A stretch of 63,999 nt of DNA, counting the filler, from Chrysochromulina tobinii (taxonomy: Eukaryota), in NCBI GenBank assembly GCA_001275005.1. It is 5 parts of 5 records of this genome, joined end to end, with 100 filler letters (N's around TTAATTAATTAA, not from the genome) between each part and the next. Parts side by side here need not be neighbours in the genome. Positions count along the whole stretch, not along the records: positions 1 to 22,486 come from JWZX01000911.1; 4 more parts are not named here. One strand, written 5' to 3'. Of the stretch, positions 4,822-61,310 are shown in pieces; position 1 is the first letter of the stretch; each line of letters opens with the position of its first letter. A program made the translations under genes and the position numbers. The notes under the pieces are model-generated. The model saw only the letters and a program-made list of their open reading frames with translations. It had not been told where the DNA came from and made no database searches.

Positions 4822-7776
4822 ATGGCGGCCAGCAGCGCAGCTGACCCGTGGGCCCTGCCCGAGGACGCTGCCGCTAAGTACGATGCCTTCTTCACTATCT
4901 GCGCAAGTGGCGGCAGCCACGTCAATCGTACGCAGGCAGGGCCGCTCTTCGAGCGTGCGGAGCTGCCGCCGCAGCAGATGGCCATCATCTGGTCTCTCTC
5001 TGACATCGACCTCGACGGTCGCCTCAATAGTAACGAGTTCCGCGTGGCCATGCATCTTGCGACGCTCGCCGTGGCAGGGCAGCCGCTTCCTTCGCGGCTG
5101 CCTCCCGTACTTGAGCTCATCGCCCGTCCCCGACGAGCGAGCGACGAGCGATCCACGAGGATGACGACGCAGCCGCCCCATAGTCCCGAGACCAGTTCGG
5201 GCACGAACCTGATCGCTGACTCACGAATCACCATGTACAAGGTCGTGACCTCCGCGTTCGTCAATGCACAGGACTTGCTTGATCCGGGCGTGATTTTGAT
5301 GTGGATGGACATTGCGGCGTGCTTGGCAGCCGAAAGGCACACAAAGACGAGCTCCGTGACGCTCTCGATGGACGATCTCCACTTTGACACGATGGTGCGT
5401 CTCGGAGCGACCGTGCACTTGGAAGCGACGCTCCACAAAGTCTTTGGCACATCGATGGAGGTCGGATGCACCGTGTCTACATCGCAACCATCGGGCCGCG
5501 ACAAGTTCGTGTGCGCCGCATGCTTCACCTTCGTGGCGCTCGGTACCGACGGCAAGAAGATGCGCGTCGCCGAGGCGCTTGCAGTGACGCCCGAGGAGAA
5601 GTTTTTGTCGACGATTGCGACTGAGCGTCGCGCGTGGCGGCTGAAGCGCTCGGCGCTGGAGCTCGAGGCGCGCGAGGGCGCCGAGTCGAGCCAATCGCTA
5701 GACGTGGCCATCGAGGAGGATGCGGTGCTAAGCGGCGGTTGTGCCGCCGGTGGCAGCTGCTGTGAAGGCGGCGTGGAAGAAGCGGCGCCGACGCCCTTGG
5801 TGACCTACTCGATGACTCAACTCGTGCTGCCTAATATGGCCAACCACCACGGCAATACCTTCGGAGGTCAAGTGATGGCGTGGATGGCCGAGGCCGCGAC
5901 AGTCGCCGCCAACCGCCAGGCGTTCGAGTCGGTACCCGCCTCCCACCTCGGCGCGATCTCGCACGTCGAGATCGCGCTCGTGGATGCGCTACAGTTTCAT
6001 GCCAAGTCAGTCGTAGGCGATCGCGTCGTGCTGCATGCAAAAGTGACACGTGTCTTCGGCTCGTCGATGGAGATCTGCGTCACCGTCGAGGCGTACGGCG
6101 CGACCAGCACCGAGGTGCGCCAGCCCCAGCACGGCCTATTCACAGCACGGCCTATTCACAGCACGGCCTATTCACGACGACGCATGCGACCTTGAACCCT
6201 TCGCATGCCAAACCCAGCCCTCGTCCGCATCCAGGGGCGCCTTCTGATGGCCACTGATGGCCACTAATTGCATCCAGGGGCGCCTTCTGATGGCCACTGA
6301 TGGCCACTGATTGCCTCCCTCATTGCCTCCAGGTGCGTCACATCAACACGGGCTACTTGACGATACATGTGAAGGCCCAGAGGCGCCGAGGTGGGCGCTA
6401 CCTCGACCTGCCCCTGCGCCCGTCGCGCGCGCCACCCGCGACGGACTTGGATGCGCATGCGGCACACGCGGGGGCGCTCGTGCGTCTCCGCGTGCGTGTA
6501 CAGCGTCGCCAGATGCTCTCGTTACGCTCGGACGCAATGACGTGGAGCCCGTTGCTCACAGGTGCGCCCTGCGTCCGAGTGCCTCTAAGTGCCTCTCTAA
6601 GTTCCGCTGATGGCCTCTCTAAGTGCCGCTGATGGCACCTCTCTAAGTACTCTGCGCGATTGCTGACTCGCAAAGGAGCCCTGATGACCGCTGATGACCA
6701 CTGATAACCGCTGATGACCTCTGATGACCGCTGATGACCGCTGACTCGCAGAGGAGCTTTGCATTTGCAACGTGCTCGGGCTGCTCCGGGTGGTGGGCCA
6801 GCAGCCACCGGCCGTGCACTGGGAGGTCCTCTCGTTGACCTTCCCCGGGCAGGTACTCACCTGGACTCGAACCTGGACTCGAACCCGAACCCTAACCCGA
6901 GCCCGGAGACCCTGCCTGGAGACCCCCCTGCGGCAAATAGTTGATGGCCGCTGATGACCTCTGATGACCTCCCAGGGCAGATGGTGCGCCCTGATGACCG
7001 TTGATGACCGTTGATGACCGCTGATTATACCGCTGATGACCTTCCCCGGGCAGGTTGTGCGCCGAGGTTCGCTACCCTTTGACGGCTCGCTCAGCGCAAG
7101 CGACGTGATTTGCGTCGCGCATGCAACTGATCTCTTCGGGCGTGGCACGCATGCGCTCAAGGCGGTCACTGTCGTGCAGGCGAGCACGACGCGCACCTTC
7201 GCGGCGGTGACGGACCTGCAGCAGCGCGTGCGCTGGGATAGCCTCCTCGAGGCGGGCAAAGTCCATCGCACCCTTGATGAGAAGAACGCTCTCGTGTACT
7301 TCAAGATGAAGCCCCTCATTACGGGCGGCCGACCACATGACTACACGTTGCTGCAGTCTTGGCGGCGGGAGGCGGACGGCAGCTACGTGATTGCATCTCG
7401 CTCGGTGGTGACTCCCGAGCTGCCCCCCGTGCGCGGCTGCACGCGCGGAGCGGTCCTCCCCTCTGGGTTTCAGTTAGAGCCTCTGGACGACGGGCGTACG
7501 CGGGTGACGTACATCGTCCAGATGCAGCAGCAGCGCGGCATCACCGGCGCCTTCGGCTCGGCCATCCTGCGGCGCGGCGCCGAGCTCATGCGGCGCAGGT
7601 TCGTGCTGCTCGAGGAGCTGCTGCGCACGGAGGCGGCGCCCAAGACGGCGCCGACTGCGAGCTGGGCGCCGCGCTGGGGCGCTCGCGGCTCGGGCATTTC
7701 GGCCGTACCCACGCCCGCGCCCGTGGCGCTTGAATTGATGATGCCGGGCGCGGCCGCGAGTGCGACGGACCAGTAG
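4822..7776 (+). CDS. EH domain + two hotdog acyl-CoA thioesterase domains + START domain (ACOT11/12-like); exons 4822-6114, 6333-6561, 6752-6852, 7054-7776
   Basis: EH: IIWSLSDIDLDGRLNSNEFRVAMHL. Hotdog motifs WMDIAACLAAERH, FGTSMEVG, ANHHGNTFGGQVMAWM, FGSSMEI. START: RVRWD, YVIASRSV, RGAVLPSGF, TRVTYIVQ. Three GT-AG introns restore the frame. Confidence 0.8.
6115..6332 (+). other. Spliceosomal intron with a 16-bp x3 repeat and TGATGGCCAC minisatellite
   Basis: GAG|GTGCGC ... TGATTGCCTCCCTCATTGCCTCCAG|GTGCGT; splicing gives TE|VRHINTGYL. Confidence 0.8.
6562..6751 (+). other. Spliceosomal intron with TGATGACC(G/A/T)C minisatellite
   Basis: ACAG|GTGCGC ... CTGACTCGCAG|AGGAG; splicing gives LLT-E-ELCICNV. 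Confidence 0.75.
6853..7053 (+). other. Spliceosomal intron bounded by an exact 19-bp direct repeat
   Basis: TGACCTTCCCCGGGCAGGT at 6836-6854 and 7037-7055; internal 10-bp minisatellite. Confidence 0.85.
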
Positions 7777-13528: not shown

Positions 13529-13918
13529 CCAGAGGTGGGGCCATGGAGTGTGAGCCCACCTCGCGTGATCCCGTGTAAGTAAGTAAGTAACTCACGCCTA
13601 TCGGCAGCGTACACGTGGCGAGAGCCCACCTCGCGTGATCCCGTGCAACGCCTGATGAGCCCGCTGTGCGACCACGGGACCTGATGATCATGTTTTGCCG
13701 TAAGTACTCAGAGTGATGACGAGACTTACTCAGATCTCAGTAGAGTGCTGTCTTCTGGGACTAGGAACTGTGCATATTAGTGTGTGCTGGATATGCAGTG
13801 AAATCACACTTCACGGGAGGGTGGTGCTGCGCTGACGGTCGTTAGCGGGACCCGGCACGAGCGCGAGCGTGGCTGTGATTCCTGCAGCTTCCCTCGGATG
13901 ATTTTATACAACAACTCG

Positions 13919-16847
13919 CTACCCGCGCGTATCACCGCGCGCCGCGGCGGCTCGGGTCACCGACGCAGTCGCCACGGCGCGTGCGGCAGGCGAGTGCAGC
14001 AGCGTCGTAACCTCGCGCGACGCGACGACCTTGCGCGCGGCGCGGCAGCCAGCGGAGTACTCAAACTGTCGCAGCGCGCTGCTCAGCGCTTGGCGGGAGC
14101 GGGCACGCCTCTTAAGCGGATGCATGCGCATGTCGACGCCCTCGCACCGGATCGCCGCGGCTTCATTGGCGGCGGCGGCTACGTCACCGAGTCTCGCGTC
14201 CAAGAGCACGCTCGCGAGCTCGGCTGCATCGAGCAGGGCCTGGTTGGCGCCTTGTCCTTTGAATGGTGCCATCGGGTGCGCCGCGTCGCCGATGAGGGTG
14301 GTGCACGAGGCGAGCCCAGATTGCATCTCGTCGCGCGAGATGGCGCCGTCGCCGTTGAGGGTGGCGGCGCTAGCCAGCATTGGCGGTGCTGGCCCCTGCG
14401 TTGGCGGCGCATGCAACGAAGTCGGCGGCGCACCCTCAACGGCGCGCGGCATGGCCGTTGGAAGCGAGGCCATCAGAGGTCATCAGAGGCCATCAGAGGT
14501 CATCAGAGGTCATCAGAGGCAATCAGAGGTCATCAGAGGCAATCAGAGGTCATCAGAGGATGACGATCACCTGCATGGCCGTTGGAAGCGAGGCCACTGA
14601 CGCCGCGGAGGCCGGCAGCGCTCCACCCGGGGTCGGCGCTCGATACGGCGCCCCTAAATAGGCAGGTGGTGCTCGATACGGCGCTCCTTCCGGAGGCACG
14701 GGTGCTGCTGCAGCCGCGCTCGAGACGGCGCGCTCATACGGACTCAGCCGGTCGTAGATTGGGTAGCCCGTCACGTCGTTGGCACGTGTGGCCGCTAGCA
14801 GCGCGTGCACCGCAGGCGAGCACCATGCGCTACAGCGCTGCCGGGCCTCAGCGAGCAGAGCCCCGCCGCCGCGAGATGAGAGCTCCCGCGCCGCCTCCTC
14901 GGCCATCGGGAATGAGAACTGCCACATGGTGGCGCTCGCCATGTCGCTCGTCGTGTCGCTCGTCGTGTCCACGCTCGCATCCGAGGCCACGCCCGCGCGC
15001 TCAAATGGCATCGCGTACATCCGATTGGCGCCATCGACCCATTCCACGACAGTGTGCGCGTCGAAGAGCGACGTGACGTGCGACGTAACGTGCGACGTGC
15101 TGGGCGCCGTGCTGGGCGTCGTGCTGGGCGTCGTGCTGGGCGCCGTGCTGGGCGCCGTGCTGGGCGTCATCTCCTCGGCCTGCGCTCGCAGGGCGGCCGT
15201 TGCAGCGATGCCGAGGATGACGATCACCTGCATGCAATGAGGGAGGCAATCAGAGGTCATCAGAGGCCATCAGAGGTCATCAGAGGATGACGATCACCTG
15301 CAACGCGCGCAGCGGCGCGCTGTCTGCCTCGCCGCTCTCCTGCACGAGTGCCGCGCGCACTGCGGACCGAATCCCATCGGCACCGACGAGAACCTTTGCC
15401 CGGACGGTGCGGCAGGTAAGCGGCAGTGGCGCTGCCTCCTCTGCACCCTCTCCATGGCCGCCGATTGCCACTGATTGCCTCTGATTGCCTCTGATTGCCT
15501 CTGCACCCTCTCCATGGCCGCCGTGCTGTGCTTGATCGCGGTACTGCTCGACCGTCACTTGGACGATGTTGCATGGCCTGGTGGACGCCGCCACGCCCGC
15601 CGCCGCCACGCCCGCCGCCGCCACGCCCGCCGCCGCCACGCCCGCCGCCGTCACGCCCGCCGCCGCCTCGCCACACATCTCTTTCTCATCATCAGGAGCC
15701 GCCTCGTCCAAAGGCGTGACGCTGATTGCATCGCTGATTGCATCGCTGATTGCATCGCTGATTGCATACTGATGATCTCCCTCATCAGGAGCCGCCACGT
15801 CCATCGGCGCTTCGCCGCTCGACCCTTCCCTACGCACACGTGCCCCGCGGAACCGGAAGCCCCAGCGCACCGTACCCGGCGACAGGCCCGCGTACAAGAG
15901 CGCGCGCAGCGACTGGCGTGGAAGGTGAACCTGTGGGGAAGTGGCGCGCCGTGGTGAGCACGTGCATGCAAGGCGTACAAGAGAGCTCGCAGCGACTGTC
16001 GCGGGAGGTGCACATTTTGCTTGTGTGCTGCCGTCGAGCCCGCCCGCTTGCACTGTGCCGCCATCGAGCCCGCCGCCGGCGCGCCACTGGCGGAGGCCAC
16101 GCCCGTGCACGCGCTCTCGGCCGCAGCCGCCGTCCCGTCAATTGCCCTAGGAGCCTCGATGGGTTGCTTGCCCGACGCCAAAGCCAAAGCGCTGTCGACT
16201 CGCGTCGCCGCGTCAGGCGCAGCGGCGCGCGTGGCGGCGCCATGGCTGCCAATCAGAGCGCCGGAGAGCGCGTCGAAGGAGTAGTGTGCCGTGCTGTGCA
16301 GCCCGGCCGTCGTGACCGCCTGCGTAAGCCCAATGGCGCGCAGCGCGGTACCCCCCTGCTGCATCGTGAGCCCGTAGCCCTGACTGCGCTCGCCGATCGA
16401 CTTGTCACGCTCGTACACGGCGCATCGCACCCCTCGCTGCTGCAGAGCGAGCGCTAGCGCGAGGCCTCCGATCCCGCCGCCGATGATCGCGACGTCCACG
16501 GACTCGATGACCATGCCGTCCGCTGGAAGAACACGGCCGCCATTCTCTGCACCGCCACTTACCTCGTTGGCGTCGGCACTTTGGACCGCGTCGCCGCGCT
16601 CCGCATCTGAAATCGGGCTCCGAAGCATCAAGCCACTGCCGCTGCAGGCCGAGCAAGGCACCATGGGCGGCGGAGTGGGCGGCGCAGTGGCGACTTTGCG
16701 CTTCTTTTGATGAGGCACCTGGCCCGTGCCATGGCAAGCGACACAGCTTCGATAAGCAGGGATCGCAAGTTTGCACAGGCGAACCCATTGGGGCTCGTGC
16801 TGACTAGCTGCAAGAGCTGGCGCGTCGCTCCACGCTGGCGACGCCAT
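13919..16847 (-). CDS. FAD-dependent monooxygenase with N-terminal CxxCxGxG zinc finger; introns 15931-16013, 15228-15297 and about 14396-14570
   Basis: IIGGGIGG, VYERD, LVGADGIRSAVR and LIGDAAHPMAPFKGQGANQALLDA spread over four ORFs joined in frame by GT-AG introns; CVACHGTG and CSACSGSG at the N-terminus. Confidence 0.8.
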
Positions 16848-17041
16848 GGGGCAGCCGAGGCGTCGTGCACCAGGTGTGAATTGCTGTTCACACCTTTGAT
16901 ACTGTACCCCACGTTTTGGCAGGTTACTAGTAAAACAACACTTCATTATAATTTCTCCTCGCGTTTTCGAGCGGAGGTGCGGAGCGTTCACGTCCATATA
17001 ACAATCTTAGATCGGCCAAGCGTGCGGCGCAAACTCGCCCA

Positions 17042-17635
17042 CTACGCACGCCTTCGCGCGTGCACCCTCCCACTCCACGGGTCCTCGTCGCGGTGGTGGC
17101 GCGGCAGCCGTCGGGCGTGCCTCTCAAGCCCTTCGTGGAAGACCTCGTCAGTGAGCCCTTGCGATCGTGGACAGTGAACAGCGGTGCAGCCCAGCTGTTC
17201 GACGTGCAAGATGTCCTTGTAGGAATCGTCGAAGAAGAGCATGTCTTCGAACGGCACTTGCGCACGCTTCGAGATTTCTCGTAGGTGGGAGGCCTTCGCT
17301 CCGTCGGTGATCACAATGGGCGAGCTGCCCACGACAGCTGCCAGCGTTCGAGATTCGTCAACACGTAGAATCTGCATCCACTCAAGCGCCCATCTCTTTC
17401 GGTGGGTCCTCGACGCCAATGCGACGGGCACTCCCAGATCTGCAAGCGTTGCAAGCGCGCGGGCGGCCCCGTCATAGAGACGTAGCGTCTCGCCGCTTGA
17501 TGCGCGAATGCCGCCGAGCCCATCATCAATAGACACCCATGGTGGCCCGTTTCGAAATCGTGGACGCGCCCAGAGCGTCCAGTCAAGGTCGCAAACGACG
17601 AGGGTTGGTAGCGGCGACGGCAGAGGACGCACCAT
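17042..17635 (-). CDS. MDP1: Magnesium-dependent phosphatase 1-like HAD phosphatase (subfamily IIIC)
   Basis: DLDWTLW (DxDxT), ASRT, conserved Lys, MLFFDD. Confidence 0.8.
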   Translation of the reverse strand: MVRPLPSPLPTLVVCDLDWTLWARPRFRNGPPWVSIDDGLGGIRASSGETLRLYDGAARALATLADLGVPVALASRTHRKRWALEWMQILRVDESRTLAAVVGSSPIVITDGAKASHLREISKRAQVPFEDMLFFDDSYKDILHVEQLGCTAVHCPRSQGLTDEVFHEGLERHARRLPRHHRDEDPWSGRVHARRRA

Positions 17636-22486: not shown

Positions 22487-22586
22487 NNNNNNNNNNNNNN
22501 NNNNNNNNNNNNNNNNNNNNNNNNNNNNNNTTAATTAATTAANNNNNNNNNNNNNNNNNNNNNNNNNNNNNNNNNNNNNNNNNNNN
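22487..22586. other. Artificial contig linker (N44-TTAATTAATTAA-N44); also at 38347-38446, 48991-49090, 61209-61308
   Basis: Identical spacers with stops in all six frames. Confidence 0.97.
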
Positions 22587-37837: not shown

Positions 37838-38446
37838 AAATTTCCGACTTCAATCGAGGGGAGCGCGCGGCGCAGGCCGCGGAGCCGCGGACACTGACAG
37901 TAACACGAGCGGCACGAGCGCCTCGCGCGACTCGGGGACCAGGAGCCGACATACAACGCTGTTCAGCCCCAGTTCACACGGCACACGCCCTAGTTCTCGT
38001 GCTGTACTCGCTTACTGTGCCTCCTTACAGTGAGGTGTGAGCCGAGTTCCAATGTCAACAACGCAGACCGCACCATACTGTCATGCACACTACATATTCT
38101 CACCACCTGTAAGTACGCGCGCCCATCTCTAGGGGCGAGGTAACGACTGTGAACGCCCTAGGGTGCCGGTGCGTGGTATACTACGGTCTTGGTCCGGTCA
38201 CCAAAAGCAAACTTTCCTTCAACGCGCGGCGCACAGCTGTGTAGTACACCTTTATGCTTTAAAGGCCCACGTCACGCTCTGGCGAACGACCCGAAAAAAG
38301 GCTCTTTTGCACACGCCTCTCCGCTGCGCGCCCTCGCGCCAGGCCGNNNNNNNNNNNNNNNNNNNNNNNNNNNNNNNNNNNNNNNNNNNNTTAATTAATT
38401 AANNNNNNNNNNNNNNNNNNNNNNNNNNNNNNNNNNNNNNNNNNNN

Positions 38447-48990: not shown

Positions 48991-49090
48991 NNNNNNNNNN
49001 NNNNNNNNNNNNNNNNNNNNNNNNNNNNNNNNNNTTAATTAATTAANNNNNNNNNNNNNNNNNNNNNNNNNNNNNNNNNNNNNNNNNNNN

Positions 49091-61055: not shown

Positions 61056-61310
61056 TTTACTGTCCTAAACACTGACAGGGGAGCTTTGTTCTGTGACAGT
61101 GCCTGTTTCCATGTGTAACATGTCGCAAGAGCGCCGTAACCGTTCCCTAAACCCCCTTGCTGAGAGGACTCGGGACAAGAGGACAAGCACGAATGCGATA
61201 GCCACTCTNNNNNNNNNNNNNNNNNNNNNNNNNNNNNNNNNNNNNNNNNNNNTTAATTAATTAANNNNNNNNNNNNNNNNNNNNNNNNNNNNNNNNNNNN
61301 NNNNNNNNCG

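Follow-up and report, generated by a model that had tools for sequence, protein, structure and literature searches.

Results

A monooxygenase gene interrupted by members of one repeat family

The window, by which we mean the whole analysed stretch of 63,999 nucleotides from Chrysochromulina tobinii, carries on its minus strand a gene for a FAD-dependent monooxygenase (Table 1). The gene opens with an ATG at 16847 and closes with a stop at 13919, three of its four exons match Pfam FAD_binding_3, and a homologous protein, P0031, is encoded as a single unbroken frame of 887 aa on a 29,475-nt contig. The window contains four pairs of 44-N runs, with 12 bases between (22487-22586, 38347-38446, 48991-49090 and 61209-61308), none of them inside this gene. 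The linker holds a degenerate EF-hand-like loop (14325-14365, minus; Pfam EF-hand_5, E 0.011, below the cut-off), which is doubled in a metagenomic copy of the gene, L007; at positions 1-100 of that copy the former exon that is now intronic contains a 21-nt unit three times, adding 42 nt in frame.

Table 1. Features of the monooxygenase gene and of its inserts, in window coordinates.
Feature	Position	Strand	Evidence
FAD-dependent monooxygenase gene (FAD_binding_3)	13919..16847	minus	Pfam; uninterrupted 887-aa homologue P0031
Exons of the gene	16847-16014, 15930-15298, 15227-14571, 14395-13919	minus	
Probable intron A, 83 nt	15931..16013	minus	Absent in P0031; splicing predicted
Related repeat insert, antisense in coding sequence; duplication 15 nt exact (28 nt at 89%), 93 nt, in frame	15689..15809	plus	Kept in RNA contig; absent in P0040
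Insert of the same repeat family, antisense in coding sequence; 26-nt duplication, 60 nt, in frame	15438..15523	plus	Absent in P0031
20-nt duplication at site 1, first copy; supplies the donor	15283..15302	minus	
Intron 1, 70 nt: head, four 10-nt units and 15-nt tail ending CAG	15228..15297	minus	RNA joint in X13
20-nt duplication at site 1, second copy; last 15 nt encode the VIVIL strand	15213..15232	minus	
24-nt target duplication at site 2, first copy (exon); ends with the 5-nt entry match, starts with the 7-nt exit match	14573..14596	minus	
Templated insert, 100 nt: AG, 15-nt head and nine 10-nt units; AG stays in the mRNA	14473..14572	minus	
Intron 2, 175 nt, GT..AG: 98 nt of new sequence, the 24-nt repeat in its second copy, and 53 nt that were once exon	14396..14570	minus	RNA joint in X14
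24-nt target duplication at site 2, second copy (now intronic)	14449..14472	minus	
Former coding sequence made intronic; provides the CAG acceptor	14396..14448	minus	Contiguous coding in 19 homologues; skipped in RNA

An earlier note, made from the sequence alone, had described a 20-nt duplication at 15213-15232 and 15283-15302, the recurrence of a 22-nt string at 14556-14577, and a 24-nt duplication starting at 14449 and 14573; strings and coordinates proved exact in all three cases. The 24-nt copies are offset by 124 nt, which is not a multiple of 3, and the insertion at site 2 breaks the frame as the note had said. With the three types of 10-nt unit abbreviated as A, G and T, intron 1 of the window reads head-A-G-A-T-tail and the insertion at site 2 (insertion 2) reads AG-head-A-T-A-T-A-A-G-A-G. 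At the entry, site 2 matches the tail of intron 1 over 5 nt (CATGC) and the exon upstream of intron 1 over 3 nt; at the exit, it matches a G unit over 7 nt (TGGCCTC). Both microhomologies had thus been given at their correct lengths, which random junctions reach at 0.004 (5-nt entry) and 0.0008 (7-nt exit). Each of the nine units of the insert carries a CTRAY motif that may serve as a branch point.

The 15-nt head occurs three times in the window, always within the monooxygenase gene (6e-5 copies expected by chance), and none was found outside this gene in the window and 35 fetched loci (about 90 kb, probably of the same organism, as is assumed for L009). The VIVIL residues that it encodes align with a conserved hydrophobic strand in the distant homologues P0004-P0008 (for example LRALGVAVVLG and LRFLGVVVVLG); judged by this alignment, the head is coding sequence of this gene and derives from it, and the note's view of it as exon-derived and gene-specific holds. 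The donor of intron 2 is a copy made from site 1, whichever the direction of copying. Exact matches of intron 2 extend to 37 nt with intron 1 and to at most 21 nt with the other seven window arrays compared; the longest, 56 nt, lies within L006, a lake allele described below.

Intron 2 is removed from RNA

Four RNA runs (polyA) were compared as contigs and joints were read from the listed rows; contigs alone cannot prove RNA origin. In X14, record 8 omits 175 nt with CT..AC ends, that is, on the gene strand, GT at 14570 to AG at 14396; it is one contig, from another allele, with 16 differing letters in its 698-nt record. A frame-restoring splice from this GT had been predicted, to be sought in RNA across 14350-14620, either to CAG at 14396 or to GAG at 14435: the first joint is the one seen in this contig, and no use of the second was seen. 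The in-frame AGs within 320 nt past the donor lie at 14435, 14396 and 14327, and RNA use was seen for 14396 only. In X13, record 5 joins 15212 to 15283, leaving out the 70-nt intron 1, with no differences from the window. Each intron joint was found in one of the four runs; among the rows listed, neither was present in X15 or X16, and the 175-nt joint was absent from three of the four. Among the 33 informative proteins of the database, there is none with the intron-2-joined form. All together, a GT..AG segment is removed from RNA and the frame is restored, as for a spliceosomal intron, at a net cost to the mRNA of 17 codons from a low-complexity linker.

A perfect 14-nt inverted repeat (14350-14363 and 14431-14444) spans the new acceptor, and none of 200 shuffles gave the like. 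Both of its arms differ in the other allele class, at the protein level. In the predicted fold the nearer in-frame GAG is fully paired in the stem, but the AG that is used is mostly paired too.

Insertion 2 is polymorphic

Among 41 close homologues from a protein collection, which are cluster members and not a population sample and some of which may come from the window's own culture, site 2 is uninterrupted in 19, ends at MQVIVIL, the entry junction of the insertion, in 14, and is not covered in 8. Nineteen proteins without the insertion and 14 from other assemblies with its junction make this a real presence/absence polymorphism; by its absence from these orthologous alleles, insertion 2 is judged to be derived, a recent gain. 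Since site 2 is contiguous in the homologues, the last 53 nt of intron 2 are former exon: they are coding in P0001-P0003 and P0031 and skipped in RNA. The acceptor was therefore exonic before the insertion, as had been supposed, the site being contiguous coding sequence in all 19 uninterrupted homologues.

Site 1 is covered by four of the 14 proteins that carry the insertion: the tail of intron 1 is present in two of them, a different insert in P0035, which is a recombinant, and no insert in P0040. P0040 resembles the window haplotype on both sides; it carries insertion 2, lacks intron 1 and one antisense insert, and next to site 1 its residues are ancestral. The 41 proteins included none in which this intron 1 occurs and insertion 2 is missing. 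Allele classes were typed by neighbouring residues, which differ between the classes. In P0039, from a 1164-nt JGI contig, a U-box protein is fused to the linker of this gene and ends at MQVIVIL; this is either a chimeric contig or a further spread of the segment with the new donor.

A metagenome scan yielded 34 loci, seven of which are this gene. From 13700 to 17100, L001 and L002 equal the window, and L003 departs from it by 30 nt within a coding repeat; all three probably derive from the window's own culture. Insertion 2 is spanned by L006 and not by L004, L005 or L007.

Site 1 carries more than one kind of insert

Site 1 occurs once in the window, in L001-L003 and in L006. The junctions of intron 1 show matches of 4 and 5 nt. 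A duplicated exon stretch with AG|GT that supplies the splice sites, as in the tandem-duplication model of Rogers, is found in the 20-nt repeat of intron 1 and not in the 24-nt repeat of intron 2. Among the homologues, site 1 is uninterrupted in P0031 and P0040 only, and P0001-P0003 carry a different insert there. In the other allele class, a different insert is found in P0012, P0020 and nine further proteins: a 13-codon duplication that ends at the same codon and apparently involves another repeat unit, in frame and without a stop in P0012. The insert of this second allele class, known from protein only, represents either a gain in parallel or an earlier state of intron 1.

A head-to-tail allele

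In L006, insertion 2 reads AG-head-A-T-A-T-A-T-tail-head-A-G-A-G-A, where the contig ends; this concatemer is seen in one short-read lake contig that terminates inside the repeat. L006 thus holds a whole intron-1 unit and part of a second, so that the copying took more than the donor. Deletion of T-tail-head (40 nt) from it leaves 105 nt identical to the window and accounts for the window's sole A-A pair. The common ancestor of the two alleles probably held a complete intron-1 unit followed by the beginning of another. Linear intron 1 does not have the tail-head-repeat junction. A simple assembly loop is made less likely by the one base in which the tail inside insertion 2 of L006 departs from the tail of L006's own intron 1.

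The repeat family in the gene and in the window

Five family inserts of the window are flanked by exact duplications, of 24, 20, 26, 15 and 19 nt. They lie in both orientations, two of the five being antisense in coding sequence and in frame. For two further arrays no exact duplication was found at the positions tried; one has an 11/12 match by eye, and one test met an internal tandem repeat. No terminal inverted repeats were found at insert ends among the 20 pairs listed. The nine arrays compared in the window have units and tails in common and private 5' ends. The repeat is abundant, with hundreds of matching contigs per RNA run; a protein search with the intron-1 tail peptide gave five matches, all to this gene, with only 15 candidates scored.

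Over its first 42 nt, probable intron A is a repeat of the exon that follows (15889-15930, minus), with seven differences, all at third codon positions, both copies encoding VHLPRQSLRALLYA. Differences confined to third positions suggest that the copies go back to diverged alleles or paralogues and hence to a switch between homologues. The region is identical in L004 and L005, and L006 has one difference, outside the duplicated part.

Elsewhere in the window, a family intron at 6116-6332 (plus) has an internal 43-nt tandem repeat that starts in a tail-like string and is possibly a second head-to-tail donor copy. At 6560-7053 (plus), in another gene, two adjoining family arrays are each other's best match (22 nt, the next being 21), a weak hint of local copying; in one of them, the end of the upstream exon is duplicated over 19 nt. 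L035 (259-321), a contig filed as viral with a GC of 0.37, bears two family-type intron tails at its end, as host carry-over or an integration junction would. In two scans of viral contigs, family tails turned up at 0 and 1 loci, and a scan of prokaryote genomes gave 0; these counts are uninformative about the family.

Discussion

How intron 2 may have arisen

Intron 2, described here at one locus, is a real, spliced and polymorphic new intron. Its source can be traced within the same gene, and one allele appears to be an intermediate. On balance, we think it was probably made by microhomology-guided template switching in cis, its donor end being an exact copy of site 1. A growing DNA end would have left its template at the 5-base match, copied intron 1 and returned at the 7-base match, 24 bases upstream. 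The strand would have copied one full intron-1 unit and begun a second, either by a slip between the 20-nt repeats of intron 1 or from a tandem donor allele, and a later 40-nt deletion would have produced the window allele and removed the internal acceptor. The same process, with other members of the family serving as templates, may have produced intron 1 and the other duplication-flanked inserts of the gene. The frameshifting insert would be able to persist because a donor and branch-like motifs come with it and an in-frame CAG is available in a low-complexity linker.

The hallmarks of a templated insertion are present: microhomology at both junctions, a nearby template and a target duplication. 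Indeed, variable duplications, junction matches and the lack of terminal repeats would fit a polymerase that quits the gene at a short match, takes a family intron as its template and resumes farther upstream, and the 700-nt distance favours a template in cis. General features of such repair-templated copying are described in PMC7407515; here and below, the comparisons draw on the accessible parts of the cited reports. In that account SD-MMEJ loop repeats measure roughly 30 bp, and a template about 700 nt away, much farther than this, counts against our reading. The earlier note had argued for template switching over transposition, with the donor spreading in cis from intron 1 to a daughter intron. 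Junction matches, variable duplications and the want of fixed ends bear out the first point. The source does lie in the same gene, but a whole intron unit and part of a second were copied, as L006 indicates; and insertion 2 is indeed derived, but P0040, with insertion 2 and no intron 1, would also allow the opposite order of the two events.

Copying in the opposite direction is unlikely, if still worth serious thought. Insertion 2 would then have come first, from the AG|GT-bearing exon stretch of site 1 and the family repeat, and grown head-to-tail in place, and intron 1 would have followed by gene conversion through the 20-nt homology. The make-up of P0040 (insertion 2 present, intron 1 missing, one antisense insert fewer, ancestral residues next to site 1) agrees with this order, but haplotypes recombine between the two sites, as in P0035, and repeat-flanked inserts can collapse precisely; P0040 could equally be a recombinant, a revertant through such a collapse or a partly spliced transcript. 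Insertion 2 is present in all 14 informative window-type alleles, whereas site 1 varies among those; the classes being typed by residues next to site 2, typing and site-2 state are linked. The last 7 nt of the intron 1 tail match the entry flank of site 2, as the opposite direction would have it, but this direction also requires an extra short-homology jump for a 17-nt piece. Moreover, site 1 gives rise to such junctions by itself, since in the second allele class (P0012, P0020) a separate insert departs from it at the same codon.

The tail-head-repeat junction is met twice in L006, with 7 tail bases at the entry and the whole tail inside. Such a junction would arise at every pass round a circular copy of intron 1, be it a 3'-5' RNA circle used by a reverse transcriptase or a 70-bp DNA circle formed between the 20-nt repeats, copied by rolling circle into a nearby break. 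True intron circles are reported from yeast, human and Entamoeba (PMC11146597). We nonetheless regard this origin as improbable: a free circle is expected to land anywhere and not 700 nt from its source, the order of units differs between the two passes in L006, and a slip between the 20-nt repeats yields the same junction. A more general form of the idea, which we put forward as decidedly doubtful, is that introns here reproduce without a transposase: a duplication-flanked intron would give a small RNA or DNA circle, copied more than once round into a break in the same gene, and head-to-tail daughters would be trimmed into working introns. If the circle reading were true, the repeat family would amount to a lineage of introns that template themselves and spread from one neighbour to the next.

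An enzyme-mobilised Introner or a Replitron-like non-autonomous element, making local hops and carrying parental flank, seems very improbable. The abundance of the repeat, with its hundreds of contigs per RNA run, would suit such an element, and Replitron-1 has variable duplications and parental flank, with one putative transposase in a Chrysochromulina genome (PMC10288648). However, the inserts have no fixed 5' end or terminal repeats, their heads are private, they lie in both orientations and they match at both junctions; the target of insertion 2 ends in GC and not RG; and published Chrysochromulina Introners have 4-bp duplications, as far as the accessible text of the preprint goes (bioRxiv 2022.06.06.494994). 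The chance of an assembly artefact is practically negligible and concerns the internal junction of L006: short-read contigs do break at these repeats, but 14 proteins from ENA and JGI contigs, which carry substitutions of their own, show the entry junction, as does L006, and the RNA joint uses the inserted AG.

In this one gene one can see source, junctions, empty allele, apparent intermediate allele and spliced product together. The exon-derived head acts as a barcode of origin. Private barcodes in family introns would permit a genome-wide test of cis template switching against circles and against an element, in a wild population in which the alleles are still segregating.

Relation to known systems

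Our literature search, which covered few subscription journals and did not extend to the supplements of the Introner preprints, where the family may be listed, found no description of this case or of a same-gene concatemeric intron copy. In Daphnia, introns were gained with flanking repeats and in parallel, from sources mostly unknown (PMC4202315). Intron 2 shares with these the direct repeats and the presence/absence polymorphism, and the locus may share the parallel gains at one site; unlike them, with their flanking repeats of 5-12 nt (PMC4540971) and mostly unknown sources, it has a repeat of 24 nt and a source in the same gene. Oikopleura likewise offers two near-identical introns in one gene (according to PMC3879977). 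Those are ascribed to reverse splicing, whereas the copy here comes with additional bases and a 24-nt duplication, includes a head-to-tail second pass and borrows its acceptor from an exon. Transposition by reverse splicing needs the intron to be inserted precisely, alone and with no duplication, and the extra AG, the 24-nt duplication and the partial second copy speak against it.

Tandem genomic duplication across AG|GT (PMC3443670) resembles the case of intron 1, whose donor comes from a duplicated AG|GT exon stretch, and it foresees imprecise gains that remove coding bases, as here. It differs in that a foreign repeat lies here between the copies and that the duplication at intron 2 has no splice site; with a 24-nt repeat lacking AG|GT, it was rejected for intron 2. 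The amphioxus 'mirage' repeats (PMC3087553) are also head-to-tail copies across a splice junction and were proposed as a route to new introns. Mirages, as that report presents them, amplify in place, whereas here the unit lies at a distance of 700 nt and splicing of the new intron is demonstrated. A mirage minisatellite was set aside, as the copy is about 700 nt distant and site 1 is single.

The Introners of Chrysochromulina and Polarella (bioRxiv 2022.06.06.494994, 2020.10.14.339549) likewise form a repeated intron family with target duplications, one splice site being carried and one co-opted. Their duplications, in the accessible text, are class-specific and 3-8 nt long and their ends defined, in contrast to the 15-26 nt, variable ends and gene-derived head seen here. 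A transposon-type Introner was rejected, the duplications (24, 20, 26, 15 and 19 nt) being neither short nor of fixed length and no terminal inverted repeats having been found at the insert ends among the 20 pairs listed. Some Introner families likewise have no terminal inverted repeats.

Replitron-1 of Chlamydomonas (PMC10288648) has in common with the inserts described here a variable duplication, a carried parental flank and a possible rolling circle. Its elements, as described there, measure 0.9-3.6 kb and have fixed terminal repeats and an RG target, none of which was seen here; a Replitron was rejected because the target ends in GC and there are no fixed ends, such as terminal direct repeats. 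All together, intron 2 works like a repair-templated insertion and, as far as each was tested, departs from transposon-type Introners, reverse splicing, mirages and Replitrons.
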